Shown: positions 47,046-64,000 of the stretch, one piece after another
Layout: each line of letters starts with the position of its first letter
Position numbering within the stretch: the first letter of the stretch is position 1
Assembly: GCA_000182565.2 (NCBI GenBank)
Contig: KQ257457.1
Origin: Spizellomyces punctatus DAOM BR117
Taxonomy: Eukaryota
Reading direction: 5' to 3' (one strand)
DNA: 64,000 nt
Program-made: the position numbers and the translations under genes
Notes under the pieces: model-generated
Told to the model about the DNA's origin: nothing
The model's input: only the letters and a program-made list of their open reading frames with translations
Databases searched by the model: none

Positions 47046-49476
47046 TATTGAAACTTAGCGCTTGGAATACTGATTTCCCGTGTTGAAATCACTTCTGGAA
47101 GGCCTAGTAATGCCTGTGGCCGCTAGTAAGACTTCTGGGTGCAGTAACTTGTGGGATAACACGCTTGTATTAATCCAGAGACATGCAAAAGTCCCCTTTA
47201 TATAACCCAGTACATTCTCCAGCCTCCCTCCGCCTTTGTTTACTGTTTACATGCTTCAGCCCACTTGTTTACATGCTCAGCCGTGCTCAGCAATGCTCAG
47301 CAGCTTCAGCCATGCCTTGGCAAACATTACCTGAAGATCTAGATCACCACAAACCTTCCAGACCTTCTAAGAGCGCTTACATGATGATTTACCCCTTTAA
47401 ATCATTCCCACACGCGTCTGTGATCATTCTGATTACTCTATGTCCAATTCCCCACGTTGTAACTTAGCCAAATCAGATGTGAACTGTCTAATGACATCCC
47501 AGCATGATCTCACATGATTTATAGATCATACAGCGTGGTTTAAGCCTGAATCTCAACACTCCCACTCAGTGAATCATCTGATTTCCGACAGAGACCCATT
47601 TTGCCACAAAGTTTAAGGTGCTTTGTCTTGGGTAAAGCCTTGGTGAGAATGTCAGCTGTCATTTCTTCTGTCTGACAGTACTTGAGGCTGATGTTCTTGT
47701 CTTCTACTGCTTGTCTGATGAAGTGGTGCCGCACATCAATGTGTTTGGTCCTTGCATGATGTGTTGGGTTGTTGGCAAGTGCTATGGCGCCCTGATTGTC
47801 ACCATACAATGTTGTAGGACCACTTTGCTGATGTCCTAGTTCGCCTAGAAGTGTTCTGAACCAGATAACTTCCTTGGTAGCTTGACAAAGAGCCATGTAC
47901 TCTGACTCTGTTGATGATAGAGCGACTGTAGGTTGCCTCTTGCTTTGCCAGCTGACTGTGCTGCTGCCAATCTTGACTAAGAAGCCAGTGGTAGACTTCC
48001 TGAAGTCCAAATCACCGCCCCAATCTGCATCAGAGTATGCAGATAGCTCCCACTTGCTCTGAATGCCGCCCAGTTGAAGTCCTAGGTCTGTGGTGCCATT
48101 CAGGTACCGCATGATCCGTTTGACTGCATCCAGTGCTGATGTCCGGGGTTGGAAAGATACTGGCTAACTGATCCAACTGCTGCTGCTATGTCTGGTCTGG
48201 TGCCCAGCATTGCATAAATGAGACTTCCAACAGCACTTCTGAAAGGAACCCCATTCATTTCTTGCTGTTCTGCCTCAGTTTGTGGTGACATGGCCTTGGT
48301 GAGCTTCTGGCCATTCTCTAGTGGTGTGGCAACTGGTTTGCTGTTACTCATATTGAATTTCTTCAATGTTTGACCGAGGTACCGCTGTTGGGAGAGCCAG
48401 ATTGACCTGTTGGCTCTGTCCCTGACCACTTGAATGCCGAGAAAATGCTCTAACTGGCCCATATCAGCCATCTTGAACCGCTTCTTGAGTTCTTCTTTGA
48501 GTTTTAACAACTCCTGGTTGTCCTTTGCTGCCAGAATAAGGTCATCCACATACAGGATAAGGTGGATGCCCATCTTCTTGTTGATGTACAGCCCGTGGTC
48601 TGATTCACACCTTTCAAAGCCAAGTTCTTTGAGTTGCCCATCAATGACTTTGTTCCAGGCTCTTGGAGCTTGCTTTAACCCATACAAACTCTTCTTTAGC
48701 TTGCAGACAAGTCCATTTGCCATGGTGAAGCCTTCTGGTTGGTCCATGTAGATGTCCTCCTCAATGGTCCCATTCAAGAATGCTGTCTTGACATCCATTT
48801 GGTGAATCTCCATGTCCTTCATGGCTGCTAGTGTCAGGACCGTCCTGATGGTTGCAAACTTGACTACTGGGGCAAATGTCTCCTTGTACTCCAGTCCTTC
48901 AACTTGGGAGTATCCTTTGGCTACCAGTCTGGCCTTGTAGCGCTCTACAGAGCCATCTGACTTGAGTTTCAGCTTGAAAACCCACTTGCAGCCAACTGTG
49001 GATCTTCCTGGTGGTAGTTTGACTAAGTCCCATGTCTGATTCTCCATCAGAGAGTCATATTTTGCTTTGACAGCCACCTCCCACTGTTTGGCATCATATC
49101 TGGTCCTAGCTTCAGTCAGAGTGCTGGGTTCTTCCTGTGGAACTTCCCCAATGGTGAAGGCAAACGCCAGATTTGACTGAGTTGGCTTTGCAATCCACCA
49201 CTCTCCCAGTGGTTTGTGAAATCTGGCACTCTTCCTGCTGAGTTCTGGCACTTCCTCAGCATCCTGGAAGTCGTCCCGATCATCTTCTGATGCTGAAGAG
49301 TTGTCTGGAGTGATGCTAGATGGTCTCTGAGTCTCTTGAACCGTCCCTAGCCCTTCTTGGTCATCCAAGAACGAAGGCTCCCCTCCTAGAGGCATCTGTA
49401 GCTCTTGGTCTTGCTGTGGTACACTCTGCAGTCACTGCTGAGTGCTCCACATCAAGTTTTCATCAAAGATGACGTC
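47046..49476 (-). mobile_element. Ty1/Copia copy D (3' LTR 47046-47558, RNase H, RT), interrupted by the viral element
   Basis: Near-identical to copies A/B; Copia sequence stops at ...AAAGATGACGTC, where the other copies continue CCTTGACATG. Confidence 0.93.
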
Positions 49477-49521
49477 TGATACAGTGCAGATAAGCCGTAC
49501 GGCTTATCTGCACTGTATCAG
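49476..49521. repeat. Perfect 46-bp palindrome at the element terminus (44 bp TG...CA if the shared C at 49476 belongs to the target)
   Basis: CTGATACAGTGCAGATAAGCCGT|ACGGCTTATCTGCACTGTATCAG; 23-bp arms, no loop, no mismatch. Confidence 0.97.
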
Positions 49522-49632
49522 CCGGCTTATTTATGATTATAAGCTGGCTTATTATTCTATATACCCGGCTTATTATATATTACATCAGCCCGGCTTATTA
49601 TATTTAAACGCCCACTCCATATTTAAACGCCG
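49501..49632 (+). repeat. Subterminal iteron-like direct repeats
   Basis: GGCTTAT at 49501, 49524, 49546, 49567 and 49592 (spacing 21-25 bp), then two ATATTTAAACGCC copies. Confidence 0.85.
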
Positions 49633-49745
49633 TGTCAATTTAACTCAAACGTGGTTCTAACCACTCGGACCCCATCTCGAACACACCAATTTCGAATAGT
49701 TTTTTCCCTTCATACTTTGCCAGCATTTTTTCCATGATTGCCCCA

Positions 49746-50234
49746 TCATGTGCTTTCGAATCCTCCTTCAGTTACTGATACACACGACACCTTCAGTCTC
49801 AATACATTCCGTTGCATGCGATAGATGGCGGAAATCTGTGTCACCTGGTCTTCCGTGTATCCGGCATTCATTAGCTCCTTCTTGATATCGTTTGTAAGCG
49901 CCCCCAACTTCTCCTCTACTAGCGATGCCACATACATATTCGAGCCATCTTCACCAATGATTGACCGGATACCTAAGTCCACCATCTTCCTTTCAATCGC
50001 CTCCTTACTCCGTCGATTCCCTGTTACTATCTTTTGGTACTTCTCATTGTCAACCGTTAGTTGGTAGAATCTCTTAATGTCAAACAGCTCCTCTCCACTA
50101 GCTCTCCTTATCAATTTCTGAGCCGCAAGGCGACTCAGCGCGCTCGAAGGAGCACTGTCCATGGTTAATCGATGCCGTGTGAATCGCTCATAATCGTAAT
50201 TGTTTTGGTGGGCAGGGGAGGGACATTGAACCAT
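49746..50234 (-). CDS. Hypothetical viral protein (162 aa)
   Basis: Intronless ORF in the viral element; no recognised motif; contains an in-frame double-hairpin element. Confidence 0.55.
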   Translation of the reverse strand: MVQCPSPAHQNNYDYERFTRHRLTMDSAPSSALSRLAAQKLIRRASGEELFDIKRFYQLTVDNEKYQKIVTGNRRSKEAIERKMVDLGIRSIIGEDGSNMYVASLVEEKLGALTNDIKKELMNAGYTEDQVTQISAIYRMQRNVLRLKVSCVSVTEGGFEST

Positions 50235-50639
50235 CGACTTTATGCAAAAACTTGGACTTGCTATTGATAGTTGCTTTTCCCACTTTACATCAGCAGATTA
50301 CTACACGTACGACTCACGTGATGCACCTTCCTAATATGGTAATCAACTATCGATAGATTCACTTTGCAAAGCAATTCATGTGATTTGCCATGTCCCAGAC
50401 ATGTTAGTCCCCCGATCATGACTCAGCTTCAGTTAGCCAATCTTGATCGTAATTCTTTAAATACAGCTTTGGTTTCCGAGGTCGCCTACGGCGAAAGTAA
50501 AGGAACATTCAATGGCCACACTACGCGTCCTCGCTTGAGCCTGCGCTCAGCGCGCTCCGAAGGGAGCGCTGTCCTTCATAAGTGTGGAGTCAGACGGTGT
50601 AAATGAAAGTGAATGGTGACTCGATTCCGCATATACTAA

Positions 50640-51130
50640 AATTAGGGGGGCCTGTTTGGGGGGCCTGTTTTNNNNNNNNNNNNNNNNNNNNNNNNNNNNN
50701 NNNNNNNNNNNNNNNNNNNNNNNNNNNNNNNNNNNNNNNNNNNNNNNNNNNNNNNNNNNNNNNNNNNNNNNGCCTCTCCATATATGATTTAGCAGCTAAT
50801 CCCCGTCGAGTCAACTTATCGAGTGATAAAAAGGGGGGCCTGGGGGGCCTGTTTTTTGGACATTTGGGGTCTACAGAGATGTTCTACTAAAGTAAAAATA
50901 GGAATAATGTGTTTGTTGTTTTTTACTCTGCTTTTTTCATTCCAAACAATCTACTTTCGAAAAAACAGGCCCCCCAAGCCCCCCCTAAAAAACAATGAAT
51001 TATACTACATATATCTACTCCATATATTCTCTCTTTTTTCATAGCTCTCTTCATACATCGAGTAAAAAAAAACAGGCCCCCCACATGCCCCCCACATGCC
51101 CCCCACGCCCCCCTAAAAACAATCAATTAT
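50640..51130. repeat. Direct and inverted G6/C6-tract repeats (GGGGGGCCTGTTT / AAACAGGCCCCCC) downstream of the primase-helicase gene; spans an N-gap
   Basis: G-tract units at ~50644-50671 and ~50833-50857; complementary C-tract units at ~50960-50990 and ~51064-51120. Confidence 0.8.
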
Positions 51131-51145
51131 ATAGTCCCTCTCTTT

Positions 51146-53956
51146 TCACTCACGCAATCGGATTCCTATGTAAAAGCGAGTTCCCTTGATTTTCTTTTCC
51201 TTCAGAACTGAACTAAGTTCCTTGTGAAATTGATTTGCACTAAGTGGTTCTTTGGTGCTCCCGAAGAATTGTATGTAGTAATGTTTGTACAATTCCTTTT
51301 TTTCAACTCGATTGTTCTTCATATCCGTTTGGTAATCTACCAGCATGTACGTCTTCTCCAGCCATTTTGCGGCGCTTAGACTGTTCATCAGGTTCCTCTG
51401 TGTAAATTCCATCACAGCAGGAGGGGTTTCTATTTCGAACGCCGATGGTATCCCAAAGAAAGTGGTATAATATTCGAAAAGCATTAAGATGAATTCGTCC
51501 CTGTAGGCGGGTGAGGAGAACAACCGCTTAAGTGACCTATCTATGATTTTTCTCGAAGTTGGGCTGTCCTCCGTTTCGTCATCCGCGACTTCATCTCCTT
51601 CATCTTCATCTCCTTCCTCCTTATTATCTTCATCAGCATCATCGAAGCAGAATGGATATTCCTGCACCCGAGCGTGCATTGCAAGGGCACGCTCCACTTT
51701 GTCAAACTTGATGTCCTCGTTCGTTTGAACATTAAGGAGACCAGTGATGGGAAATGATATGGGTTTTCCATGCAATGACCGGACCGTTTGTCGGTCATCA
51801 CCGGACGACCAGCGTTTAATGATTTCTGCTATAAAATAGTCACCAGGACTAGTCTCGGAAGTGGATAAGTACCTCTTGCCAAAACAGTTGTACAACTGAG
51901 CGTTGGGAGCATCAACGGTTGCACTTTCCATCGTTAAATTCTTCTTGTCAACCGCATAATAGTATCCCCCAAATGCCTGGTCAATCAAAGTATTTTCTGT
52001 ACCTTTTCCATTGCGACCTCCCCCCTTCAACACCATGAAGATTTCGTCCACAATTTTACCATAGAGGCAGCGACACACTATGTGGAAGCGATAGTTTACC
52101 AGGTCACGAGAGGGAAAGATGCTTTCATAGAAAGAGAGAATATGTTCGCGTATCTCTGGGTTGGTTTTTCTCGGATATGGATAACCACAGGTGAAAAGGA
52201 TGTAATCATCGGGTCGAATATCTCGAAACGTACCTGTGTTCAGTTCATATACGCCATCTGTGAAGGCAAATAGTTCTGGTTTGGAAAGGAAGAGGTCGAT
52301 GCATTTATCGTTTCTCGGTTGCAAACGGTCAACATTTTTGGCCACTTGCACTGAAAAGTTGTTCATTTCAATATCGCGACGGAATGATGCCAAGAGGTCT
52401 TGGAGCAATGAAACATTGGTCTCTTGACCATCATCATCGGCATCCTGGATGAGTCTCTGAAAGTCGGCAATAAGGGTATCGGCGACTTGAAGATTAACAT
52501 CGCTATCTGCAATGTTTTCTTGCTTATACCAGATATTGTCTTTTCCAAGGATAAAGCAGATTCCGCTGGAATGCTTGAAGATAGTGTCTTTCTTGATCTC
52601 CACAAACCATTCAGCGGTGTTCTTGTGGGTGGGAACCAACACTCGCCGAAAATCAAACCTTTTCCATTGCGGAAGGCGACGCAACTCATCAATATCCAAT
52701 TCTTCCCTGGCGTCTCTCTTTCTCTTCTTCGGCTGTTCGGCAATAGGTTCTTCATTCACTTCAGGCGGAACAGTTAGATGGAATTGGTCGAGGAAACTCT
52801 GAGAAAATTCCATGGGCTTCTCGGACAATCGGATGGAGTAACCGGTTTCTGCCAAGATATATTGTTCGCATTCATGCAAGAGGTTGACGTCAAACAATCT
52901 ATCAGTTCCAGGCTTGCGTCTGACCTGAATTCCATCATAAATCAACACATCCACAGAATATTGGATATCGGTGAAAAACTCGTGCATCGACCACATGATA
53001 CAATTTTCGACGGTGTGGTAAACGAGGCTAAGGAACGACCCAGCACGATTCTGCTTCTTACGTGAAGTCCTCAGCCAAATATCAGGAAACTGTTTTTGGA
53101 GAAGCGGCACCAGTTTTTGGTATACGAAGGAGTGAATGGCAGCGACTTGCTTGTTGAAATTGGTGGCCTTTTTTTCACAGTTAACAATTGCTATCATGTC
53201 TTGTTTGTTCATCTTCCATTCACTCAATAATGTGTCACGATTTTCAACGTAATCATCCAAGTGGGGGCAGAATAGGTTATTTGATTTGCTTAGTTCCCTT
53301 AATACAGTGAATTGAGCATTAACCATATCAAGATCATGGTACTCGTGTCCGCAAAGGTAAGCACGGAAAGGGAAGGTACGAGCAGGGGTCCCTTGAAGTG
53401 AACTAGGGTTTACCTTTTCACCGTCGTCATTGTTCAAATGGAAGCAACGACATTGTGCATATAAACGTCCGATGCGTAAATCACGGTTATTCTCTGAAAA
53501 GTTATACTCCACATGGTAGTCGTTGGGGCCAACCCGTCGTTTTTTGAATGAGCGGAAAAATCTTTTGTATTCTTCAGATACGTAGGGAGAGTTCAAGATT
53601 TCCCTCAATCTAGCATCCGACACGAATTCAAACTTTTCGATGGGCAGTTGCATTTGTGCAGATTGAGTGACCGTGGGTATATCACTGTTATCAACAGGAA
53701 AGAGCAGAGGGTCGTGACCAACTTCGTTATTATCCTCGATGTTCTCGTTCGTTTGCTTTTCGGTTTTAATTTTCTTTTTATCAGGTAAGGATGGTGGCGC
53801 CTTGGTTTCAACTCCCTTCTTGTGCTTCTGGGGAGTGAATGTACCATCGGCGTCAACAACAAAAATTTCTTCTTTCGCATCTTCAACAATTAACAAAGGT
53901 ATATTTTTGCGAATCGCAATGACTTTAGGCGCTTTCTTGCTGGATTGAGTTTGCAT
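51146..53956 (-). CDS. TVpol (PolA-family-like primase/polymerase) fused to D5_N and a superfamily 3 helicase (936 aa)
   Basis: IGRLYA..SSLQG..RAYL..YHDLDMVNAQ (motif A), HTVEN, VLIYDG (motif C); D5_N LFAFTDGVYEL..FRDIRPDDY; Walker A GGGRNGKGT, Walker B LSTSE, IIKRWSSGD, motif C LNVQTN. Confidence 0.88.
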   Translation of the reverse strand: MQTQSSKKAPKVIAIRKNIPLLIVEDAKEEIFVVDADGTFTPQKHKKGVETKAPPSLPDKKKIKTEKQTNENIEDNNEVGHDPLLFPVDNSDIPTVTQSAQMQLPIEKFEFVSDARLREILNSPYVSEEYKRFFRSFKKRRVGPNDYHVEYNFSENNRDLRIGRLYAQCRCFHLNNDDGEKVNPSSLQGTPARTFPFRAYLCGHEYHDLDMVNAQFTVLRELSKSNNLFCPHLDDYVENRDTLLSEWKMNKQDMIAIVNCEKKATNFNKQVAAIHSFVYQKLVPLLQKQFPDIWLRTSRKKQNRAGSFLSLVYHTVENCIMWSMHEFFTDIQYSVDVLIYDGIQVRRKPGTDRLFDVNLLHECEQYILAETGYSIRLSEKPMEFSQSFLDQFHLTVPPEVNEEPIAEQPKKRKRDAREELDIDELRRLPQWKRFDFRRVLVPTHKNTAEWFVEIKKDTIFKHSSGICFILGKDNIWYKQENIADSDVNLQVADTLIADFQRLIQDADDDGQETNVSLLQDLLASFRRDIEMNNFSVQVAKNVDRLQPRNDKCIDLFLSKPELFAFTDGVYELNTGTFRDIRPDDYILFTCGYPYPRKTNPEIREHILSFYESIFPSRDLVNYRFHIVCRCLYGKIVDEIFMVLKGGGRNGKGTENTLIDQAFGGYYYAVDKKNLTMESATVDAPNAQLYNCFGKRYLSTSETSPGDYFIAEIIKRWSSGDDRQTVRSLHGKPISFPITGLLNVQTNEDIKFDKVERALAMHARVQEYPFCFDDADEDNKEEGDEDEGDEVADDETEDSPTSRKIIDRSLKRLFSSPAYRDEFILMLFEYYTTFFGIPSAFEIETPPAVMEFTQRNLMNSLSAAKWLEKTYMLVDYQTDMKNNRVEKKELYKHYYIQFFGSTKEPLSANQFHKELSSVLKEKKIKGTRFYIGIRLRE

Positions 53957-54004
53957 ATTGGTTATTTTACTTCCGGGTTTTTTTGTGAACTAACCATTTC
54001 GTAC

Positions 54005-54018
54005 CAATCTTTATATAA
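54005..54018 (-). promoter_or_regulatory. Shared TATA-like promoter motif TTATATAAAGATTG upstream of the primase-helicase gene
   Basis: The identical 14-mer lies at 55898-55911 upstream of the RING gene, at nearly the same distance from the ATG (49 vs 46 nt). Confidence 0.6.
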
Positions 54019-54123
54019 GCATTTGAATGCACATCGGAGCTATTTAGGCAACATCGGTCGCCGATGTAAAATGCGTTTATTTAAACAAGCACGATTTTGG
54101 TACATCAATAATATACAACGAAA

Positions 54124-54327
54124 ATGCCACACTCAAAATTTGATTACACTGGGATATTCGAAAAGTACGGGATTACCCAGACATTCCACGCTCCATCATT
54201 GCGGCAGTTGTCAAAGATGATGGATATCTCAGAGATGACTATGAGAAAGGCCGCAAAAATGAATGGAGAACTGTATCCCCGTGCAATCATACCTTTGAGA
54301 GTCTCGAAGGTTCCAAAGCAGAACTAA
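54124..54327 (+). CDS. Small viral protein, possibly HTH DNA-binding (67 aa)
   Basis: SLRQLSKMMDISEMTMRKAA resembles a helix-turn-helix; AAAATG start context. Confidence 0.5.
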   Translation: MPHSKFDYTGIFEKYGITQTFHAPSLRQLSKMMDISEMTMRKAAKMNGELYPRAIIPLRVSKVPKQN

Positions 54328-54485
54328 GTTCGATCATCCTTATAATCCTCAATCAAACTCTCCCTCATCCGCTTACTCCGCTCTTCAAGGTAGCATTGGA
54401 GACAAAGAGGTCTCCGTTGACAAGGAACCTTATCATACTCTCTGCCACATTTTTTACATTGACGTTTTGCTATGCTAGTTTCCAT
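54324..54485 (-). CDS. Small CxxC...CxxC zinc-ribbon protein (53 aa; below the ORF-track cutoff)
   Basis: METSIAKRQCKKCGREYDKVPCQRRPLCLQCYLEERSKRMRESLIEDYKDDRT*. Confidence 0.55.
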   Translation of the reverse strand: METSIAKRQCKKCGREYDKVPCQRRPLCLQCYLEERSKRMRESLIEDYKDDRT

Positions 54486-54563
54486 TTTTTAGACTTGATC
54501 TGAAAGTGTTTAAGTATGAACGAACTCACTCTAAATTTTTTTGAACCACTGTGTTAACATATC

Positions 54564-54735
54564 AATGGATTTAACAACTCCCGAAACGAAAGTCGAAACA
54601 CTGAAAAAAAGGCTACGTTGGCTGAATGATTTATGGAAGGAGGCAAGGACAACTGAGAAACGCCTCGCCATTCACCAAGAAATCGAGCGAGTTAAGTTCG
54701 AATTAAAGGAACTTGGGTATATGAGATACTTTTAA
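54564..54735 (+). CDS. Small coiled-coil viral protein
   Basis: MDLTTPETKVETLKKRLRWL..EIERVKFELKELGY; amphipathic helical pattern. Confidence 0.45.
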
Positions 54736-54789
54736 ATGGCTCAACGCAATATATGCCGCATTTTTTTTTTATTTTTATAAGGAATAGCC

Positions 54790-55032
54790 ATGTTCTGTAG
54801 TACATCCGGATTGACCAATGTTCTTGTGACACTTTTTGTTGTAGTCGCCATAACTTGTTATGGCTTGACAGAATTGATTAATTGGACAGATGGTTATAAA
54901 CAACGCCTGGTCTATCAGGAAAGATACCAACAGAAAGAAAACCTGCGCGATGCATTGGAAATCTTGGAAGACGAATTTGAATGTTATTGCAAGAACAGAA
55001 ATCCCACATCAGATGACGCGCTAGCCGTGTGA
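54790..55032 (+). CDS. Small single-pass membrane protein (80 aa)
   Basis: N-terminal hydrophobic stretch VLVTLFVVVAITCYGL; its stop codon is the first TGA of a double-hairpin element. Confidence 0.5.
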   Translation: MFCSTSGLTNVLVTLFVVVAITCYGLTELINWTDGYKQRLVYQERYQQKENLRDALEILEDEFECYCKNRNPTSDDALAV

Positions 55033-55396
55033 GCCGCCGCAAGGCGGCGACTCAGCGCGCTCGAAGGAGCGCTGTGAGCGCTGTAAACGAGATTATGATC
55101 AGTAAACATGTCCGGAACATGATAAATCACGTGCATTCTCCTCGGCACGAGACTAAACTGCCTGGCGAGTAACAAGACCGACCGACGAATATCATAGTTA
55201 TTGTTTTTAAATCTGGTTGATTCAGACTGTTCTTTAGGCTTTCTCAGACAGCGCTGAGCCGCCGCAAAGGCGGCGACTCACCCAAAAGAAAGCACAGGTC
55301 ATGGTACTGACCGAACAATAAGAAAGTACCACCACAGCTCCTTCGAGCACATCGAGCTGCGCCGCAAGGCTTCACAGCTTTTAAAATTGATATAAA

Positions 55397-55852
55397 TCAC
55401 AGATACATCAAAGTAAAGTTTGTCAAAGGATGTCTACACATAGGACATCTACGACTATTTTCTTGGTTTGAGTTGTAGTAATCGACGAAACAACGTGCAC
55501 ACATATGATGTCCACACTCAAAGATGATGGGAATGTTATTCGCATCATTGTAGCTTTCGTAGCATATCAAACATTTCAACTCTGCCCCTGCAAATGTCCT
55601 GTTTTCTTCCCGAAGCCTTTGAGCAAGTTCTTCAACCCGTACTCTCAGATCCGGTTCATGCAAATGCAGCTCTTCCATAGGAGGTCTGTTTTCATCTAGA
55701 GCCCAGCGCATAGCACTATATAGTCCCCTGATGGTCATTCCACGAGTTCGTGCGATCAGGCGACAGGAAGTGAGATAGTTCCACTTCTCATCGTCATTCA
55801 GTCTGTTGAAGTGGGCTCTGCCCATGTGATATATCTGCTGAGCAGTAGGCAT
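55397..55852 (-). CDS. RING-finger (C3HC4-type) putative E3 ubiquitin ligase
   Basis: CLIC..ECGHHMCARC..RCPMCR. Confidence 0.88.
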   Translation of the reverse strand: MPTAQQIYHMGRAHFNRLNDDEKWNYLTSCRLIARTRGMTIRGLYSAMRWALDENRPPMEELHLHEPDLRVRVEELAQRLREENRTFAGAELKCLICYESYNDANNIPIIFECGHHMCARCFVDYYNSNQENSRRCPMCRHPLTNFTLMYL

Positions 55853-55950
55853 CGAGATTTTAGAAAAAGAGAGATTTTATTAGACATTTACTTCTGTCAA
55901 TCTTTATATAAACCTGAGTAAGTGCGAATCTATCTATAGCTTCGCCTTTG

Positions 55951-56042
55951 AGCTACGCATACAACATGAAACTACGGATACAACATGAAACTACGGATAC
56001 AACATGAAGCTACGCATACAACATGAAACTACAGATACAACA
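55951..56042 (+). repeat. 19-bp tandem repeat (~4.7 copies) between the divergent RING and recombinase genes
   Basis: Unit CTACG(C/G)ATACAACATGAA(A/G) starting at 55953, 55972, 55991, 56010 and 56029. Confidence 0.92.
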
Positions 56043-56129
56043 GACAGACTATCAATAAAGATGAAATAAATTTCTTATATTAAGTGATAAACCGGCTTAT
56101 ATCCTTTAGAATACAAATCAGCCCTGAAA

Positions 56130-57110
56130 ATGGAACAACACAATACCGAATCTGCTCTCTATGATACTCTATGTAACATCCTTAACAGGATCAACCAGTC
56201 TGCAAAAACCACGAAAAATGACAAGTCGCGCCTAAACCAACTCAAAAGCCATAATCTTCTTTCATTATTCGAAACGCCTCAGATACTTATTTCGACGATT
56301 AAGGAAAAATGGCCGAATGACAATACGAAGAGCAACTATATCAAACTCGTATCGAAACTATGTCGTAATGCTAAAAAGGGGGAAAAGGCAATGATCCTTC
56401 ATCTAGCAGAGGATGCAATGGACGACCTTGATGGTCATTTTACGGACACATTCCACTCTCACTTCAAGAATGTGACATATGAAAAAGTCAAACAATTCAA
56501 AACTCAGGCTGCATCCCAAGAGATGACCCAGGAAGATTTCGCAAATTATGTCCCTTACAGCGAACTCTTAGCAGGATTGAAAGTGGCTCTCACATTCATT
56601 AATGAACAAAATATAGTGGAGCATCAATTTCTAATCGCGCTTGGGATGAACCTGGACGCTGATAAGATTCGTTGTAATGATATTTTCAAAGCGATGATCA
56701 GCGAAGACGCTAATGTTACGGTGAACAATGAAGGGAAAACTGTCTTCATCCGAAAATGCAATAAGACTGGTGAAAAGAATGTCCTTATTCAGATGGGAGA
56801 CACCATTCAACCATACGTTAACATGTTAGCAAATGTTAGAAAGGCCAATGAGCAAACGCGTCTGTTCCTGAAACCTGATGGAAGTATCCCCACCGATGCC
56901 TGGTGTAGTGACGAATTTGCTAACGCTATGGAACGAATCTTTAAAAAGCGTGTAACTCAGAGACGAGTTCGAATTTCAATGGGCATTTATCTTTCTGAAA
57001 AAGACAATGGAGACCATGCGTACCAAAAATCAATCGAGCACAGAATGGGTCACACATACGAAGTCCATCAACGCTATTACAATTTGTTCAAATCATTTAA
57101 TGCAAATTAA
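56130..57110 (+). CDS. Tyrosine recombinase of the PLV/virophage (OLV11-like) type
   Basis: Catalytic order R (KIRCND), K (CNKT), RxxR (QRRVR), H (RMGH), Y (HQRYY); helical N-terminal core-binding region (NTKSNYI). Confidence 0.75.
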   Translation: MEQHNTESALYDTLCNILNRINQSAKTTKNDKSRLNQLKSHNLLSLFETPQILISTIKEKWPNDNTKSNYIKLVSKLCRNAKKGEKAMILHLAEDAMDDLDGHFTDTFHSHFKNVTYEKVKQFKTQAASQEMTQEDFANYVPYSELLAGLKVALTFINEQNIVEHQFLIALGMNLDADKIRCNDIFKAMISEDANVTVNNEGKTVFIRKCNKTGEKNVLIQMGDTIQPYVNMLANVRKANEQTRLFLKPDGSIPTDAWCSDEFANAMERIFKKRVTQRRVRISMGIYLSEKDNGDHAYQKSIEHRMGHTYEVHQRYYNLFKSFNAN

Positions 57111-58426
57111 TGACTGTTCTCAAAATCATTCACACTGTCCCTCGCCCCACGCATAAGTTCACTTCTTGGCTCCCATGTAGCCTGGTCACGGTCATATCCT
57201 CTCCATAAGACGAGGTATTCAACTACTTGTCTTGAACCGACTCGACGTGTCCGCTTATCAAGCAATGCTTCCACTTCATACTCACCTTCTGGTACTTCCT
57301 CTTCATCCCCTTCAATTTCAGGCTCAACTTGTGGAGTTTGTCCATCATCCTCTTTTGGAACCAAACGCAATTGCCAAGCGGGATACACTCCTGGCAGCGG
57401 ATGATCAGAATTGACAGCACTCCTTCGAGCGTGCTGAGTCGCCGCAAGGCGGCTCACAGGCTTAATTTTATAACTGCCCATGTAATTGGGGTGGGGATTT
57501 GGAACAACGGCTGTTATTTCATACTTCTCTTCTGAAAAGTAACCGAGCTTGGCCCGGCGTTTTATATCTGTCCCCTGTCCTGATATATACTTTCTTACAA
57601 CATCGCCCACACTGAATGGAGGTAATACTTTCACCCCTCTTCCTTTCGTGCGCAGCGCACGTTGGGCTTGAGCCGCTCCTTGGATGTCTGCCTCCATCTG
57701 TTGCACAGTACGGAGTTTCTTCCCAGAACCGAAACTTACGGTAGAATTTATGTTCTCCACAATCTGCGGTAACATGGTCACCCAATCTCTGTTTCCCAAG
57801 CGCATCCCCATGAACAACGCTCGCTTTATGGTGCCATTCATCCTTTCGACCTGTCCATTTGTTTGAGGTGAGCCGGCCTTCGAATACCTCCATTCTATGC
57901 CATGTGTTTCTGCATACTGTGAAGTGATACCTTGAAACTCGTTTCCATTGTCGCTTTGAATACCATGGATTTCGACACCATCCTCAATGAGGTTTTGTAA
58001 AAAGTTAACGACACTTTGTTGCCGTGTATCTTTCAAGGCTTTAGCGTAAACGCGTTTAGTTAAAATATCAACCGCAACTGCTACATATTTATAGCCATTG
58101 TATGGGACGCTAATCATTGAAAAAAGATCGAGTTGAAGTTGTCCTGGGCTACTTGATAATATAGGACGGATGCCACCCTTGTTTGTCAATGGTCGAGACC
58201 AGCGTTGCCAGATCGGTTGCTCTTTCAACCATGCTAATAGTGTCCGTTGGGAGATATTGCTCTCAGGATACTTTGCTTTGTAGAGTGCCCAGAGCCTGTC
58301 TCGGCCCATGTACGCATGCTCTCTATAGTAGAGCTGCCTTAAACGCCGCTCATCCTCTGGTGTGATCTCTTTCCAGTAGTTCTTCCTTTGATCCATCTTA
58401 TCAATAAGAATCAGCTTTAAAAACAT
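57107..58426 (-). CDS. Retroviral-type (rve, DDE) integrase with C-terminal chromodomain, Polinton-like; true start possibly the second Met (MDQRK)
   Basis: LQLDL (D), IQSDNGNEF (D), NGQVERMNGTIK (E); SH3-like FSVGDVVR; chromodomain EYEVEALLDKR..EYLVLWRGY..ATWEP; no adjacent RT or gag. Confidence 0.92.
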   Translation of the reverse strand: MFLKLILIDKMDQRKNYWKEITPEDERRLRQLYYREHAYMGRDRLWALYKAKYPESNISQRTLLAWLKEQPIWQRWSRPLTNKGGIRPILSSSPGQLQLDLFSMISVPYNGYKYVAVAVDILTKRVYAKALKDTRQQSVVNFLQNLIEDGVEIHGIQSDNGNEFQGITSQYAETHGIEWRYSKAGSPQTNGQVERMNGTIKRALFMGMRLGNRDWVTMLPQIVENINSTVSFGSGKKLRTVQQMEADIQGAAQAQRALRTKGRGVKVLPPFSVGDVVRKYISGQGTDIKRRAKLGYFSEEKYEITAVVPNPHPNYMGSYKIKPVSRLAATQHARRSAVNSDHPLPGVYPAWQLRLVPKEDDGQTPQVEPEIEGDEEEVPEGEYEVEALLDKRTRRVGSRQVVEYLVLWRGYDRDQATWEPRSELMRGARDSVNDFENSH

Positions 58427-58494
58427 GTATCACCGGGGCAAAACCCATTAACATGTCTCGGACATGTTAACGTCGAAATCGGTGCGCGGGCCGA

Positions 58495-58812
58495 TCAAGC
58501 GGTTTCTTTCCGCATCTCCAAAATGAACAGTTTTTCATTATGTTCATGCCCTAGTAATATGCAATCATTCAAAATTGCCAGATAACCGGTACGGTTGAAG
58601 CATAAATGATCCAATTTGCTCAGGTGGACAATTGACATGATTTTATCAAAAATCGGTTGGTTCTCTTGATTTTTTTTAAGATACAGTATGATTTTTGCCT
58701 TATCACTACCGGTCAACATGCTCTCGCAATATCTCCAAAACTTATCCATGTCGCCTTTGACGGCATCCCTGATATTGAATACCGAATGATAATCTATATC
58801 AACACGTTGCAT
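58495..58812 (-). CDS. Hypothetical viral protein (105 aa)
   Basis: Intronless ORF between the fibre-like and integrase genes, same strand. Confidence 0.5.
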   Translation of the reverse strand: MQRVDIDYHSVFNIRDAVKGDMDKFWRYCESMLTGSDKAKIILYLKKNQENQPIFDKIMSIVHLSKLDHLCFNRTGYLAILNDCILLGHEHNEKLFILEMRKETA

Positions 58813-58883
58813 TGTAAATTTACATAGCTTTACTTTTTTTAATAACAGCGCACTGTTGAACTCCGTTCCAGTGCTAAAGGTTT

Positions 58884-61800
58884 TTAAGGGCCGAGTTCAG
58901 TGATTTTGATGAGGGTAACGTCTGTGGTATTATCGGGAGCAGCCTGATTGATACTAAAATTTGTGAAGTAAGCAACGTTATCGGCCATCCCTGTAACAAT
59001 GAATGCGGCAGTGATTGTACGATTGACCCCCGAATTAAAGTTAAAGTCGCTCGAGTACACGAGAGGCATCGACCCAGCGCTTTGGCCGAGAAATATTGAC
59101 AAAGTACCATTTGAATTTGCTGTGCCATGGAGGTTGAGCGTCCACTCCATAAGTACCTTGCCAGGTGTTGAAACATAGAAGACCTTTGAGGCATTGTTGG
59201 ATTGCCACATGTCTTTAGTCAAAAGTTTGATAACTTGAACATTTCTTAGAAATGTTTGACTGGCAACCCATGGTTGAGTAGCACAAACCTGACCATTGCT
59301 ATAGACAGCACCGTTCGAATACAGATTCCCTCCTGCAACAACATGTGCATTAACCGCAACTCCTCCATTGACAACCAGAGCACCAGTTGTACTCGATAAA
59401 GCTGGAGTGGTGCTTTCAACGACAACATTTCCTGTCGACAATGTGATAGTAATACCCTTTGCTCCCTGTGCTTGCAGTCGCACTGAACCTGCATCATTCC
59501 TCACCATAAACATCGAGGCGCCTCCGTCCACACTCCTATTGTTTCCGTTCAAAAACATAACAGCAGAACCTGCTGCATTCTGGAAGTATTGGATGGCACA
59601 ACTATTGCTACCAGAGTCGACGTTTTTAAGAATAATAGCCCGTAGCCCATTAAGTGGCGAACCAATAGTTAGATTACTGGATGAGATGAGGTCTCCGGTG
59701 TAGGTGTTAACTGAGAATCGGCTATTCCATGTTCCAAAGGTATCACTGGAATAATGACCGAATTCATAATGACGTTGGTCTATGCTATCAGACGAGCTGG
59801 TGAGGTGGATGTGAAGGGCATCTCCGGAGTTGTTGTAGGAGATAGTGTAGTCACCTTTCGTAGAGGGAGTGTCACTTCTCAACTTGAAATATCCACCTGT
59901 AGAGGCGGCTATGAGAACTTTTCCTGTAATGTTTCCACCTGAGAAGATACTTTTAGAAACCCCTATTCCTCCTTTAACCTGTAGAGCACCACTTGATATG
60001 GTTGTTGCCTCGGATGTATCATTAGCAAGAATTGTATTTGCCGACAGATTACTAGAAGATGTTATAACATCTTGTTTCGATGTTTGCAGTGCTGATATGC
60101 TGGGGGCATAGTCGACAATGTTTAAAATACTTCGAATGGAAATATCATTCACAAGGGTAAATCCTTGGACATCATCTCCCATGACAAACATGTTCGACAT
60201 TGGACTCATCGATGCAAGGGAATCGAGTAAAGGACTTGCATTTTGCTTCCCTGAGATGTCGACATTGGTAATGCCTAATATTGTCTTCACCTCTTCAGGA
60301 GTTTTCACCGAGAATGATGTAGCAGAACTCCCAACAATAAATGAATTCGCTGATAATGCAAGACCACTTATAGACGATAATAGTGGACTCGATGCCTGTT
60401 TATTAGCAATGGCCATCCCTACATAACTCTCGGTTGCAAGTTTGAGATTATTGGAGAAAATGTCTCCACCGATGTACAGCATTTTAGCGACACCTAAACC
60501 TCCTGATACCTGCAATGCGCCCGTTATAGTCGACGATGAGTCTGTAGTCGAAGTGATTGCAATGGTTCCATTGGCTTTGAGGATGAATTGATGGGCGCTA
60601 GTTCCATAGTTATAAAACCCGAGGCTCCCATTGGTAAGTATACCTGTTCCATTAGTTGCAGCGTGGTATATACCCCAAGAATTACTCGAAGCAGCATTGT
60701 TACTAATCAGAACGGCCGTAGACGCTGTGGCACTTGAAGGCGCATTGATGACTATGGCAGCCGGCTGCAATCCTCCTCCACCTGCTCCTAGGGTTAGAGT
60801 TTTTCCTATGCCGACTCCACCTGATACCTGGAAAGCACCTGTTGTCATACTAGTTGAATCGGTTGTGTTTGGTATCTGTGTTACGCCTGTATTGGAAACT
60901 CTCAGAACGAAGCCTGTATTGTTATAAGAACTATTTAGACCGAATCCGCCTGCTGATAATGTTCCGTCTCCTGTGCTTCCGGCAACTCTCATGCCCCATG
61001 TAACATTACTCCCAGTATTTACTAAGGACAATGTTGTAGATGCTGTGCCATTTTGAATGGTTATACCCCCGCCAACAGTGGCACTGTTAAATGATAGCGC
61101 AGTCGATGAGGTAATAAGAGGTTGATATGAGGAAAGTATATTCGATGTAGGAACAACTGAGAACCCTGTGGGTGTTCCCATGATGAAAGTGTTAGCCGCC
61201 GGCGTTAAACCGCTGATAGAATCGAGTAACGCAGACGCACTTTGTTTAGTAGCAAGTGCTGTATCTGCGGAGGCCTTGTTATTCTGAACAAGTGTTTGAA
61301 GCGAAGTCAAGGATTGACTAAGAGGACTTGTCATGCCGGTCATTGTAGCGACACTCCATTGTTGCGTAGCCACTTCGACTCCATTTTGAATGATCAGTCC
61401 TTCAACATTTAGATCATGTTCAACAAGTAAGCCACCTGTCAAGAGTCCATTGCCTACATTATCTACTCGAAACACTATATCTGAGGTGCCTTGGACAAAT
61501 ATTCCACCACTCGTTGTTAGAGAATTAACATTCAATGCAGACGATGTAGTAAGAAGAGGTTGGAATCCCCCTAGAATTGTAGAGACAGGTGATACTGTAA
61601 AGCCCCCAGCAGTTCCCATGACGAAGGAATTCGGTGTCGTTGTTAAACCACTGATTGCATCGAGTAAAGGACTGGCATTTTGCTTCGTAGCAATGGATGT
61701 TGTTAGAGAACTTTCAGTAGCCAATTTCACTCCATTTGTGTATACATCCCCTCCAACGTACAGTGATTTAGCGATGCCAACTCCACCTTTCACCTGGAAC

Positions 61801-63992
61801 GAGCCGGATGTTGAGGAAGTAGCATCAGTTGTCGTATTGATAATAACATTCCCAGATGAGAGAATATCCAGATTCGAAGCCGTTGCATTATTTGTACCAA
61901 TACGCAAATTACTAGCGGAGGCTCGAATGATGTAGTCTCCAGCAACTGAATTTGTTACCCATTGACCTGCTGTTGCTGTATATCCGAATGATGCATTGTT
62001 TATTTGAAAGGCGGCAGCCGCTGTAGTAGATATAATAGCATATTTTCCCATGTACACTGTGCCTTGGACTCCTAATCCACCGGCAACCTGTAATGCACCT
62101 GTCGTTGTAGAGGATGCATCATTTGTTGCATCCAGTGTAACGATTCCAGTGTTCGCGAGTATTGTCAGTCCTCTAGCGGTCTGTGCTTGAAGCCGAAGGT
62201 TACCAATATCGTTTCTCAACGTCATTGTGTTAACGCCTCCATCCACACTCCTATTGTTTCCGTTCAAAAACATCACTCCATTACCTCCAGAGGCCGTTAG
62301 ATAAAGAATTGAACAAGCATTCGTCCCTGTATTAGTATTGGTTACAACTAGTGACCGTAGACCGCTAACAGAATTGGCTCCTCCGACGGTTAGGTCACCG
62401 CCAACAAGGCATGAACCATTAGTGTCCACTCTTAGACCTAGAGTAGGCGTGCTAGATGTTCTTGGATAGATAAACATTGGTGAATCCTGAGCACCCAGCC
62501 ATGTAGAGGCGGATGGGTTAAAACCAAGAAACCCTGCCCCATCAACCCCAAGCCATGTTGATTTTGAGCCGTCAAAATTACTTGAAATAAACACCGATGA
62601 TTGTCCTGTTGCAGAGGCTGTAGTTTGCAGACGTGTGCCTGTTATCACTTTGCCTGAAACATTACCTCCAAAAGTAATATTATTCGAAGTTAATGCCGTT
62701 ATCTGGCTTCCAACCCAAGGTTTGATGACTTCGGTATCATAATCCCTTAACATCGAGAGGTTGATCGCGGCTTGGGGGTATTCATATTTGATGGTGCGAT
62801 AGCAACTCGGTACATCAAATAGTAATCGAGTACAGCCTCCAATCGGGTCTGAAGCAATTGCCACATTGCTTCCAGGCTCTAAAGGCGGCATGAAGGTAAC
62901 AGGGTCGACTGGTTCGTAAACTGGATTTCCATCTCCATCGAGTATAGGTTGGCCTTCCGCATCTCGTTGAACCTTACGTTCCCTCTGACCACCGAAAATC
63001 ATTCCCCAAGGAAACGTTGAGACGATTGGGAGGATGGAGTTTACAGCCATGGGAATCGTCAGTGGTGGAGATACCATCGCAGGAAATGGAATAGTAGTCA
63101 GCGGTGTGGCCCCACTAAGAACAACAACATTCCCACCAGGGACATCAGTTTTTAAGATTTCTGCGGCGTCAGACTGTTCCGTATTATCGGTATCCCTTTG
63201 TTTCGATAACGGCGTAGGGTCAATGAGAGTGAAATTGTACAAAGGATAACTGCCGGATATGAGGAGATTTGGGCTGTTACTTACGAATTGTGGAGGAATC
63301 ATGTTGTACTGAATGGTATTACCAACAACGACCACACTTCCGTATGAATTGGTCGAGCCAACATAATTACCTCTTAAGGTATCGCCTACTCGAAGAATCG
63401 TATCACTTCCTGAAAGCGAACATGAAATCAGATCGCCACTAACTTGCACACCATTGATACCTCGGAGGTTGGTTGACAGAATGGCACCATTCTTCTGGAG
63501 TCCAATTCCCGCAGCGATGTTCGAACTGAGAACACCGTTGTTGAGAGTTAAATCGGGCTGTTGGGCTGTGAGAGATAACCTGAAATCATTTTGCACCCTT
63601 TGGATACCATTGGAGGCGGTAAACGTATCGCCTATGGTCCCGCGGCTGAGCATCATTAAGCCAGAGTTGGCATCAACTTTTAGATCGAGTTGAAGGTCAT
63701 TCTGTACTCTCTCGATACCATTGCTACAAGTCAGTACGTCTTTAATGGTATCTGCTTTGACCATTTGGAGACAACTGCCAGCCTCGCATTTGAGAGAGAG
63801 CACCACATCATTGGTCGTTCCCGGTCTAATGGAGACGCCATTAAAGTCCTGAAAAATGTAGCCACCTGTTAACTGGTTTCCTACAATCCGAACTGTTTGG
63901 TTATCAACGAGCACCCCGATTTCACGTCGTCCACTAAACTCTGGTCCGACAGCAATGGCCCCGGTTTGGCTGCCTTGGTAAAAATTGGCCAT
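58884..63992 (-). CDS. Large virion fibre/spike-like protein (1702 aa) with shaft-type and GALQVxGGxGV repeats
   Basis: N-terminal ~15-aa beta-spiral-like repeats (ASNGIQRVQNDFRL, AGIGLQKNGAILS, GINGVQVSGDLIS); six TDxxSxTTG(A/S)(L/F)QVxGG(V/L/I)G-type modules; repeated KQ(N/S/A)xSxLL modules; rich in S/T/G/N. Confidence 0.65.
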   Translation of the reverse strand: MANFYQGSQTGAIAVGPEFSGRREIGVLVDNQTVRIVGNQLTGGYIFQDFNGVSIRPGTTNDVVLSLKCEAGSCLQMVKADTIKDVLTCSNGIERVQNDLQLDLKVDANSGLMMLSRGTIGDTFTASNGIQRVQNDFRLSLTAQQPDLTLNNGVLSSNIAAGIGLQKNGAILSTNLRGINGVQVSGDLISCSLSGSDTILRVGDTLRGNYVGSTNSYGSVVVVGNTIQYNMIPPQFVSNSPNLLISGSYPLYNFTLIDPTPLSKQRDTDNTEQSDAAEILKTDVPGGNVVVLSGATPLTTIPFPAMVSPPLTIPMAVNSILPIVSTFPWGMIFGGQRERKVQRDAEGQPILDGDGNPVYEPVDPVTFMPPLEPGSNVAIASDPIGGCTRLLFDVPSCYRTIKYEYPQAAINLSMLRDYDTEVIKPWVGSQITALTSNNITFGGNVSGKVITGTRLQTTASATGQSSVFISSNFDGSKSTWLGVDGAGFLGFNPSASTWLGAQDSPMFIYPRTSSTPTLGLRVDTNGSCLVGGDLTVGGANSVSGLRSLVVTNTNTGTNACSILYLTASGGNGVMFLNGNNRSVDGGVNTMTLRNDIGNLRLQAQTARGLTILANTGIVTLDATNDASSTTTGALQVAGGLGVQGTVYMGKYAIISTTAAAAFQINNASFGYTATAGQWVTNSVAGDYIIRASASNLRIGTNNATASNLDILSSGNVIINTTTDATSSTSGSFQVKGGVGIAKSLYVGGDVYTNGVKLATESSLTTSIATKQNASPLLDAISGLTTTPNSFVMGTAGGFTVSPVSTILGGFQPLLTTSSALNVNSLTTSGGIFVQGTSDIVFRVDNVGNGLLTGGLLVEHDLNVEGLIIQNGVEVATQQWSVATMTGMTSPLSQSLTSLQTLVQNNKASADTALATKQSASALLDSISGLTPAANTFIMGTPTGFSVVPTSNILSSYQPLITSSTALSFNSATVGGGITIQNGTASTTLSLVNTGSNVTWGMRVAGSTGDGTLSAGGFGLNSSYNNTGFVLRVSNTGVTQIPNTTDSTSMTTGAFQVSGGVGIGKTLTLGAGGGGLQPAAIVINAPSSATASTAVLISNNAASSNSWGIYHAATNGTGILTNGSLGFYNYGTSAHQFILKANGTIAITSTTDSSSTITGALQVSGGLGVAKMLYIGGDIFSNNLKLATESYVGMAIANKQASSPLLSSISGLALSANSFIVGSSATSFSVKTPEEVKTILGITNVDISGKQNASPLLDSLASMSPMSNMFVMGDDVQGFTLVNDISIRSILNIVDYAPSISALQTSKQDVITSSSNLSANTILANDTSEATTISSGALQVKGGIGVSKSIFSGGNITGKVLIAASTGGYFKLRSDTPSTKGDYTISYNNSGDALHIHLTSSSDSIDQRHYEFGHYSSDTFGTWNSRFSVNTYTGDLISSSNLTIGSPLNGLRAIILKNVDSGSNSCAIQYFQNAAGSAVMFLNGNNRSVDGGASMFMVRNDAGSVRLQAQGAKGITITLSTGNVVVESTTPALSSTTGALVVNGGVAVNAHVVAGGNLYSNGAVYSNGQVCATQPWVASQTFLRNVQVIKLLTKDMWQSNNASKVFYVSTPGKVLMEWTLNLHGTANSNGTLSIFLGQSAGSMPLVYSSDFNFNSGVNRTITAAFIVTGMADNVAYFTNFSINQAAPDNTTDVTLIKITELGP

Positions 63993-64000
63993 GTAATCTT

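Follow-up and report, generated by a model that had tools for sequence, protein, structure and literature searches.

We analyzed a stretch of 64,000 nucleotides (nt), the window, from contig KQ257457.1 of the chytrid Spizellomyces punctatus DAOM BR117 (assembly GCA_000182565.2). Judging from its genes and its sharp left boundary, the right-hand part of the window is an endogenous Polinton-like virus that is inserted in a Copia retrotransposon. The left end of this element has a perfect palindrome and four direct repeats (iterons), and an earlier note on the sequence had reported that the iteron motif recurs just upstream of a gene for a tyrosine recombinase. We found that the recurring motif does belong to the family of terminal repeats: it is part of a dyad of facing half-sites, 14 base pairs (bp) long, and the other dyads of this kind in the window are all at the end of the element. 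We lean toward the view that the dyad next to the gene is a working member of the same family of candidate sites. That the recombinase is the protein that binds these predicted sites is about half as likely as that. The features at issue are:

49476-49521, no strand: perfect 46-bp palindrome with 23-bp arms and the centre GTAC, at the left end of the element
49517-49598, + strand: four direct iterons with the core YGGCTTATT, starting at 49524, 49546, 49567 and 49592
56087-56100, + strand: 14-bp dyad ATAAACC.GGCTTAT with a spacer of 0, containing CCGGCTTAT at 56092-56100
56130-57110, + strand: tyrosine recombinase of 326 amino acids (aa) (P0001), recognized by its fold and catalytic residues

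The copy of CCGGCTTAT at 56092-56100 is on the + strand, with 29 nt between the motif and the ATG of the recombinase gene at 56130, which confirms the position given in the earlier note. That note had also proposed an exact count of the motif. Over the window, there are four copies (at 49522, 49565, 49590, and 56092), where 0.21 are expected, and none of 100 shuffled sequences had at least four. All but the last of these copies correspond to terminal iterons, of which there are four; because three of the four copies define the motif, the shuffles overstate the case. The motif had not been noticed elsewhere in the element, and indeed, the visible interior (49633-64000) contains just one copy of the 9-mer CCGGCTTAT and one of the 7-mer GGCTTAT. 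Left of the element, positions 1-49476 contain three copies of GGCTTAT and a single CGGCTTATT (at 36307). Another claim, that the iterons and the palindrome have the same core, holds for the iterons, three of which have the exact 9-mer, but not quite for the palindrome, whose arms contain ACGGCTTAT and so have 8 nt in common with the iterons instead of the whole 9-mer. The dyad before the recombinase gene follows two in-frame stop codons, so the site is non-coding. It lies about 35 nt downstream of a AATAAAGAT box, which is at about -77 relative to the recombinase gene.

The arrangement of half-sites is more informative than the word. The inner arms of the palindrome form the half-sites ATAAGCC and GGCTTAT, with a 4-nt spacer, and three of the iterons are imperfect dyads of 14-15 bp (ATCAGCC.GGCTTAT, ATAAGCT.GGCTTAT, and ATCAGCC-C-GGCTTAT). 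We searched for facing ATAAGCC/GGCTTAT half-sites with one half exact, at most one mismatch in the other half, and a spacer of 0-8 nt, and we compared the results to 3000 simulations. In the entire 64 kb, there are five such sites: 49490-49507, 49517-49530, 49539-49552, 49584-49598, and 56087-56100. Four of these are within the terminal 156 bp of the element and the fifth is at the recombinase gene, while 0.012 sites would be expected in the interior given its composition. The spacer is 4 in the core of the palindrome; 0, 0, and 1 in the iterons; and 0 at the recombinase gene, as in two of the iterons. Similarly, the pattern ATAARCC N0-4 GGYTTAT matches twice (the palindrome and 56087-56100), versus no matches in 100 shuffles. 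The match as a dyad is clearly better than the bare word suggests.

Modeling indicates that the open reading frame (ORF) at 56130-57110 is a genuine, very divergent tyrosine recombinase with the two-domain fold of Xer and Cre, which bears out what the earlier note said of this gene. By sequence, the protein has no credible Pfam family, even if matches to PF00589 with E values of up to 10 are considered (the best match, LBP_M with E = 0.037, we treated as noise), and neither the single protein nor a profile of 27 sequences matched any protein of solved structure. The most similar protein is SPPG_08458, an uncharacterised protein from another locus of S. punctatus (83% identity), and the next matches are a protein from Powellomyces hirtus and two environmental proteins at 34%. 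The family is small, as we found 35 representatives of it among 1.84 billion protein clusters (E up to 0.001). Our alignment includes the query and 26 of the 35; a 690-aa fusion, a 476-aa protein with eight matched stretches, and seven short pieces (108-239 aa) were excluded. Of the 27 aligned sequences, two match PF00589 (best E = 2.3e-5) and two match Phage_int_SAM_5, which is a SAM-like N-terminal domain. One member of the family (P0010) has 690 aa, with its recombinase part at residues 356-680, and represents a fused or extended form.

An initial AlphaFold2 model from five sequences had a pLDDT (predicted local distance difference test) of 67.7, and its Foldseek matches were all recombinases but were weak. 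We replaced it with a model from the 27 sequences, which has a pLDDT of 92.3. This model has a core-binding domain at about residues 1-126 and a catalytic domain at about 131-326. Every Foldseek match listed has the tyrosine recombinase fold (the best is XerA, with E = 9.7e-4). In an exhaustive structural alignment, the Z scores were 14.2 for XerA, 12.6 for Cre (262 residues with a root mean square deviation of 4.8), 12.0 for XerH (284 aa), 11.6 for SroF, about 11 for both the integrase of Tn1549 and lambda Int, and 9.8 for MrpR. Poxvirus topoisomerase IB aligned as well (Z = 11.2), over the catalytic domain only. All 22 of the structural matches with Z of at least 8 have the fold of tyrosine recombinases or topoisomerase IB.

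The catalytic residues are also present. K212, R281, H308, and Y317 are conserved in at least 90% of the 27 sequences, and R181 (or R180) is present in most of them. We assigned these residues by their order and spacing (31, 69, 27, and 9) and not by superimposing structures residue by residue; as the yardstick, we used the spacings in Cre, XerD, and lambda Int, in each of which the H and the Y are 9 apart. Since the catalytic set is conserved, we would expect an active enzyme, with a DNA site somewhere. The second histidine (His-II), at the start of the HxxR motif, is absent, and the protein has R278-R279-V280-R281 instead. Topoisomerase IB and some recombinases also lack a histidine at the first position of HxxR, so its absence does not count the protein out of the superfamily. 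The earlier note was right that RxxR replaces HxxR, but it does not stand as a sign of a protelomerase: in relatives, position 278 is K, M, S, T, V, I, L, D, E, or F (at least 11 different residues, including the R here), so RxxR is neither special to this copy nor a mark of protelomerases.

How might the recombinase and the dyads be connected? We propose that the terminal palindrome and the four iterons would form a protein-loading site that is built of dyads of GGCTTAT half-sites, and that the recombinase would bind these dyads as a dimer. Binding at its own gene, near the likely transcription start, would dampen transcription (autoregulation). At the ends of the element, the recombinase would assemble on the palindrome and iterons and recombine two ends, or else two copies of the genome. 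The outcome would be circularization of the genome or resolution of multimers, as for Cre at loxP, which is beside cre, and no hairpin telomeres would be formed. The safest part of this proposal is that the terminal array is bound by some protein, which we consider very probable. The recombinase is our leading candidate for the binder of the dyad, followed by a chance match or core promoter (no binder), and then by binding of the primase-helicase to an origin. We still view the proposal that the recombinase reads both the end and its own promoter via the dyads as tentative. In its favor, repressors with the recombinase fold (SroF and MrpR) are among the structural matches, and the sole internal copy of the dyad is at the recombinase gene. 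Also, in prokaryotic systems, the recombination site is usually beside the recombinase gene (loxP beside cre, or attP beside int).

A relative of the element offers a comparison. When we scanned metagenomes for relatives with DNA, we obtained one locus, L001, which is a 16.8-kb piece of a contig. Two scans of viral contigs with alignments of the recombinase, and one scan of genome contigs, yielded no further relative. The genes of L001 are in the same order as in the window (D5-like, recombinase, rve+chromo, and a fibre-like ORF, followed by an A32-like ATPase), and their proteins are 25-34% identical to those in the window. These include a D5_N + DUF5906 protein that is 25% identical to the primase-helicase (E = 4e-40) and an integrase that is 33% identical (E = 3e-70). 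The giant ORF at the right edge of the window matches the syntenic ORF of 1573 aa in L001 several times, though weakly (best E = 1e-6); this ORF of L001 carries Peptidase_S74 and an adenovirus fibre N-terminus. The ATPase matches Pox_A32 (E = 3.8e-11), and Pfam names no capsid protein in L001.

Within the 16.8 kb of L001, GGCTTA occurs just twice, both times upstream of the recombinase gene and on the other strand (42 and 60 nt from the ATG), and the sole GATAARCC is also within 62 nt upstream of that ATG. Furthermore, ATACAAATCA lies 10 nt before the recombinase's ATG in L001 and 9 nt before it in the window. This support from L001 for a motif that is shared by end and promoter appears weak and ambiguous. 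As a side observation, the window's element and L001, though distant, appear to share another cis motif. CTATCGATAG occurs once in the window (50347-50356, where 0.03 copies are expected), upstream of a 162-aa ORF, and a 20-bp palindrome with this sequence as its core, GCTACCTATCGATAGGTAGC, is found four times in or near the intergenic regions of L001 (76-98, 3886-3908, 13317-13339, and 15410-15432).

Many observations weigh against our proposal. Some of these would suit the explanation that the gene-proximal copy is a chance match or a part of an ordinary AT-rich core promoter, which we consider a serious possibility although we do not favor it. When we took the four 9-mers that are present at least three times in the terminal 156 bp and sought any of them in the interior, we observed one match, while 2000 Markov-1 simulations gave a mean of 0.36 (P = 0.25). 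In other words, a single extra copy of the bare 9-mer is within chance. In the same test, no 10-mer of the terminus recurs in the interior. With a weight matrix of 16 nt built from the iterons, the gene-proximal site comes only 13th among the sites of the window, and a random 64 kb would be expected to hold about nine that score as well; the low rank indicates that the flanks of the iterons are not matched at this site. An iteron-like word of equal length, CGGCTTATTAT, is found outside the element, at 36307. GCTTATAT is common to the gene-proximal site and to the promoter of the D5-like gene, which reads ATGCTTATATAAAGATT (the D5 version is ATGCTTATATAAAG), so a plain promoter reading of the site stays viable. 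L001, whose termini are not in the piece that we have, lacks the full dyad; the GATAAGCC found there overlaps with a TTTAAAGAT box, and other promoters have such boxes too; and the alignment of the regions upstream of the two recombinase genes is not significant (score 20, P = 0.09, while two unrelated pairs score 24-25). Also, the dyad test was designed with the data already in view, so the P value must in truth exceed 0.012. What a chance match or a core promoter explains poorly is the rarity of the dyad, which has no other copy in the rest of the 64 kb, and its location within 43 nt of a start codon, as such zones account for a few per cent of the element.

Other points concern the binder and the layout. 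The usual core site of a tyrosine recombinase has two arms of 11-13 bp around a spacer of 6-8 bp, so the 14-bp dyad is smaller than expected. The half-sites are 4 nt apart in the palindrome but 0-1 nt apart in the other dyads. In the model and in the structural alignments, the recombinase has no third, arm-binding domain. The terminus is separated from the genes by an assembly gap, and the visible element is only the left 14.5 kb, with the right end beyond the window.

Finally, direct iterons at a 21-25-bp spacing near AT-rich DNA look like a replication origin at least as much as a recombination site. The palindrome, iterons, and AT-rich tract might be an origin that is bound by the D5-like primase-helicase, and the internal copy might be where that protein has a secondary, regulatory role, or it might be unrelated. 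We find this doubtful but worth weighing. The terminus does have the palindrome, the four direct iterons, and AT-rich spacers at the end of the genome, and the D5_N primase-helicase is the only replication protein that we saw in the part of the element within the window. Viral initiators of superfamily 3 (SF3), such as SV40 T antigen and papillomavirus E1, bind short repeats that are arranged as dyads. Plasmid origins, as described in the part of PMC2777425 that we drew on, typically have an AT-rich region and iterons that serve as the target of a replication protein. A palindrome, iterons, and AT-rich DNA make up the kind of layout that initiators of the primase-helicase's class read (PMC2777425). 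However, neither Pfam nor a comparison of clusters identified a DNA-binding domain in the 936-aa primase-helicase. An origin would also leave unexplained why the sole internal copy is before the recombinase gene and not before the primase-helicase gene, whose promoter has TTATATAAAGATT instead.

Alternatively, the terminal repeats might be the sites by which the rve integrase recognizes the end, and the internal copy might let the integrase control the recombinase gene, which is convergent with its own, or might be due to chance. The inserted DNA starts with 5'-TG, the repeats are found precisely at its end, and the integrase is intact and conserved (as shown by its similarity to the L001 protein). 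The ends of Mu and Tn7 carry several transposase sites each. Yet we know of no retrovirus-like integrase that uses subterminal iterons, and a perfect palindrome at the very tip would be an unusual layout for transposase sites. Upstream of the integrase gene itself, GGCTTAT is absent and there is another palindrome, AACATGTC-N-GACATGTT (58448-58471). On balance, we consider this explanation unlikely.

Another idea is that the recombinase acts as a telomere resolvase. In that case, the ends of the free genome would be covalently closed hairpins, and the 46-bp palindrome would be the junction of replicated telomeres that is cut and resealed. A perfectly palindromic candidate target at the end of the genome, as used by protelomerases, is present at 49476-49521, and it is perfect even at its centre; as a single strand of DNA, it would form a hairpin with -23.4 kcal/mol. 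Because the part of the element that we saw has no protein-primed polymerase, the element needs some other way to replicate its ends, and the recombinase shares its fold with the protelomerases TelA (Z = 7.5) and TelK (Z = 7.3). Nevertheless, kinship with protelomerases, as suggested in the earlier note, is not borne out: XerA, Cre, XerH, Tn1549 Int, and lambda Int match far better (Z of 14.2-11.0), TelA appears at rank 40 and lower in Foldseek, and the protein has just 326 aa in two plain domains. Also, RxxR is not conserved in the family, and an integrated copy that has a 5'-TG tip and both arms of the palindrome is consistent with an open duplex end that was used by the integrase rather than with a closed hairpin. 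We therefore view a telomere resolvase as very improbable.

We can also imagine a division of labor in Polinton-like viruses with two integrases: the rve integrase would insert the element into chromatin, and the recombinase would process the palindromic ends and set its own level via the motif in its promoter. The processing might be the resolution of end-to-end junctions after replication, or else the making and opening of hairpin ends. This seems very improbable, but if it were true, no eukaryotic virus of this class would have had a telomere-resolvase-like system described before. If the link between end and promoter is due to chance, then what we have is an integrated Polinton-like virus of the ordinary kind, whose end of palindrome plus iterons is unusual. 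The dyads at the end and at the promoter give a pair of probes (49476-49632 and 56070-56125) and three candidate binders.

Besides the palindrome and iterons, the region around the left end includes these features:

47049-49476, - strand: truncated Copia copy (3' long terminal repeat side and reverse transcriptase; RVT_2 E = 1.9e-79), cut off exactly at 49476
49601-49631, + strand: two direct copies of ATATTTAAACGCC, just inside the iterons, as read from the sequence
50672-50771, no strand: assembly gap of 100 N, between the terminus and the genes

The truncated Copia copy is 98% identical to a full copy (the matching arms are 21631-22979 and 48128-49476). The continuation of the full copy, which is the reverse complement of 21601-21630, is absent beyond 49476 in the window, and it is the loose end at 49476 of high-depth reads and contigs from other Copia copies. 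The element proper begins with 5'-TG at 49477, exactly where the Copia copy breaks off. The spacings of the iterons are 22, 21, and 25, with AT-rich DNA between them. We considered if the palindrome could have arisen by a foldback artefact of the assembly and ruled this out, as beyond the 23-bp arms there is Copia on one side and iterons on the other.

We also mapped DNA and RNA runs. In a chromatin immunoprecipitation (ChIP) DNA run with the same organism label, all 30 of the 30 bins across 49300-58500 are covered, at a depth of about 2-7 versus about 74 in the Copia bin. The complete coverage at low depth implies that the element is real and is present in the organism at low copy number. None of the listed reads from the DNA and RNA runs bridges the 49476/49477 junction, and at the palindrome, the mapped DNA reads (38 nt, with a depth of 3-5) contain no joints at which the strand switches. 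There are no letter differences at the dyad among the reads listed. The RNA run gave 22 reads from about 6% of the run, which is too few to place the start of transcription. In contigs from a different sample, 49638 is joined to 50238 and 50303 to 50453, and in another contig, 50303 is followed by a repeat that resembles the 19-bp tandem unit of 55953-56042. The read joints at 49600-50520 suggest sister copies that are rearranged or internally deleted.

Several other repeats lie near this end. Runs of G6CC and GGC6 at 50645-50670, 50833-50860, 50957-50984, and 51067-51114 form inverted repeats that flank the 100-N gap (the arms 50833-50860 and 50957-50984 are inverted at 93%). These inverted repeats probably caused the gap, and they may represent structured DNA between the end and the D5-like gene. 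Further left, a cluster of nested, nearly identical Copia copies (8851-24000 of the window) includes both direct and inverted copies, such as the arms 10084-13482 and 19418-22816 (3399 nt, 99%), and there are assembly gaps in the Copia region at 6992-7091, 13547-13743, and 24493-24592. That a Polinton-like virus is found in a repeat-rich Copia region fits with insertion guided by a chromodomain.

The visible part of the element also has these genes:

49746-50234, - strand: ORF of 162 aa of no known family (no Pfam match; Atlas model of low confidence, with a TM score of about 0.3)
51146-53956, - strand: D5-like primase-helicase of 936 aa (D5_N E = 1.4e-8)
55397-55852, - strand: RING-finger protein (zf-RING_2 E = 9.7e-9), divergent from the recombinase gene
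57107-58426, - strand: rve integrase with a C-terminal chromodomain (rve E = 8.9e-12, Chromo E = 7e-13), convergent with the recombinase gene
58884-64000, - strand: giant ORF of at least 1702 aa (listed ATG at 63992, with the frame open to the edge of the window)

Our classification of the element relies on the presence of D5_N, recombinase, and rve+Chromo genes within a discrete insertion that has a sharp boundary at 49476/49477. The N-terminal part of the primase-helicase resembles primase-helicase clusters from Preplasmiviricota. From its matches, the giant ORF is probably fibre-like; the window ends inside it, and any capsid module would lie beyond the visible part. We also examined the small ORFs as alternative DNA-binding proteins, and none of those examined had a credible family. 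The earlier note assigned insertion to the rve integrase, which fits with the 5'-TG start at the Copia cut-off and with the chromodomain, so that insertion into Copia by the rve+chromodomain integrase would fit the data as well.

The promoter regions have additional motifs:

55953-56042, + strand: 19-bp tandem repeat CTACGGATACAACATGAAA, 4.7 copies, in the divergent promoter region
56111-56120, + strand: ATACAAATCA, 9 nt before the ATG, with one exact match each in the window and in L001

The D5-like gene and the RING gene each have an exact copy of the 13-mer TTATATAAAGATT 50-70 nt before the ATG (minus strand, 54006-54018 and 55899-55911), and this 13-mer is probably the TATA-like core promoter of the element. 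A palindromic motif, AACATGTC-N3-4-GACATGTT, occurs three times (50389-50406, 55102-55125, and 58448-58471). Its third copy is about 22-45 nt upstream of the integrase's ATG (58426, minus strand), and the motif might serve as a further operator or promoter element. There are also three copies of a repeat of about 40 nt that forms a double stem-loop, GCCGCAAGGCGGC ... GCGCTCGAAGGAGCGC (50129-50162, 55030-55075, and 57410-57453); one of these, in inverted orientation, falls within the integrase ORF, in the stretch that separates the rve core from the chromodomain.

A pattern scan of viral contigs for three spaced copies of GGCTTAT found at least 122 loci. Nearly all of these are unrelated tandem repeats. 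The most similar of the loci listed, L068, has six tandem ATAAGCC-ATT(C/T)-GGCTTAT dyads with AT-rich spacers (2940-3075, in an intergenic region of 950 nt), with the same half-sites and the same 4-nt spacer as the core of the window's palindrome. We rejected it as a relative of the element because it is on an unrelated phage-like contig with HNH and helix-turn-helix (HTH) genes and with no recombinase nearby. The likeness is probably due to convergence, and the array looks like an iteron origin or an array of operators.

We compared the element and its parts to systems that are already known. In its fold, the recombinase resembles XerA, Cre, XerH, lambda Int, and Tn1549 Int over nearly its full length (two domains, Z of 14.2-11.0, with R/K/R/H/Y conserved). 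Unlike simple tyrosine recombinases, the His of HxxR is unconserved in its family, and the protein from the window has no match to PF00589. Their sites have two arms with an asymmetric spacer in between, while the candidate here is either the 14-bp dyad or the 46-bp palindrome, which is symmetric throughout. Compared to the protelomerases TelK and TelA (and ResT), the superfamily fold and the perfect palindrome at the genome end are alike, but the structural match is weaker (Z of 7.3-7.5), the protein is much smaller, and in the integrated copy that we saw, nothing pointed to hairpin ends. We found no paper that joins a protelomerase with a polinton, or that applies the idea of a telomere resolvase to the tyrosine recombinase/rve systems of virophages (supplementary files on bioRxiv were outside the scope of this search).

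As in the iteron origins that D5_N/SF3 primase-helicases bind (phage P4 alpha and pRN1 ORF904), to the extent that these are covered in the available part of PMC2777425, the end has short repeats and AT-rich DNA, together with a D5_N primase-helicase. Unlike those iteron origins (PMC2777425, in the same part), the repeats here are at a linear end and are arranged as dyads, one of which is before a recombinase gene. Also, no winged-helix domain was shown in the window's primase-helicase, in contrast to the D5_N/SF3 systems in the comparison.

A Polinton-like virus of S. punctatus has already been published, with a terminal inverted repeat (TIR) of 154 bp and a protein-primed polymerase B (pPolB), according to Table S4 of Bellas & Sommaruga 2021 (PMC7805220). 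Going by that part of their study, both elements are Polinton-like and integrated in a chytrid genome, and TIRs are a feature of the published one; the element described here differs in having a D5-like primase-helicase, a tyrosine recombinase, and an rve integrase (PMC7805220). The closest known architecture is that of the mid-GC endogenous mavirus-like elements (EMALEs) of Cafeteria burkhardae, which encode a primase-helicase, a tyrosine recombinase, and an rve integrase, and lack pPolB, as described in the available part of Hackl et al. 2021 (PMC8547959). Like these, the window's element is an integrated virophage/Polinton-like element with a long primase/helicase ORF and both enzymes, and with no protein-primed polymerase in the part seen; it differs from them (on the same partial account, PMC8547959) in that its host is a chytrid fungus and in that its family of recombinases is too divergent for Pfam. 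The role given for the tyrosine recombinase of EMALEs is likely integration into giant-virus genomes, and the available part of that paper mentions no link to a terminal dyad or to the recombinase's own promoter (PMC8547959). Overall, the type of element and its dual-enzyme architecture are already known, as far as that part of the paper shows (PMC8547959). What is new is a family of recombinases that is invisible to Pfam and lacks His-II, an end with a palindrome and dyad iterons in a fungal Polinton-like virus, and the recurrence of the dyad from the end at the promoter of the recombinase.

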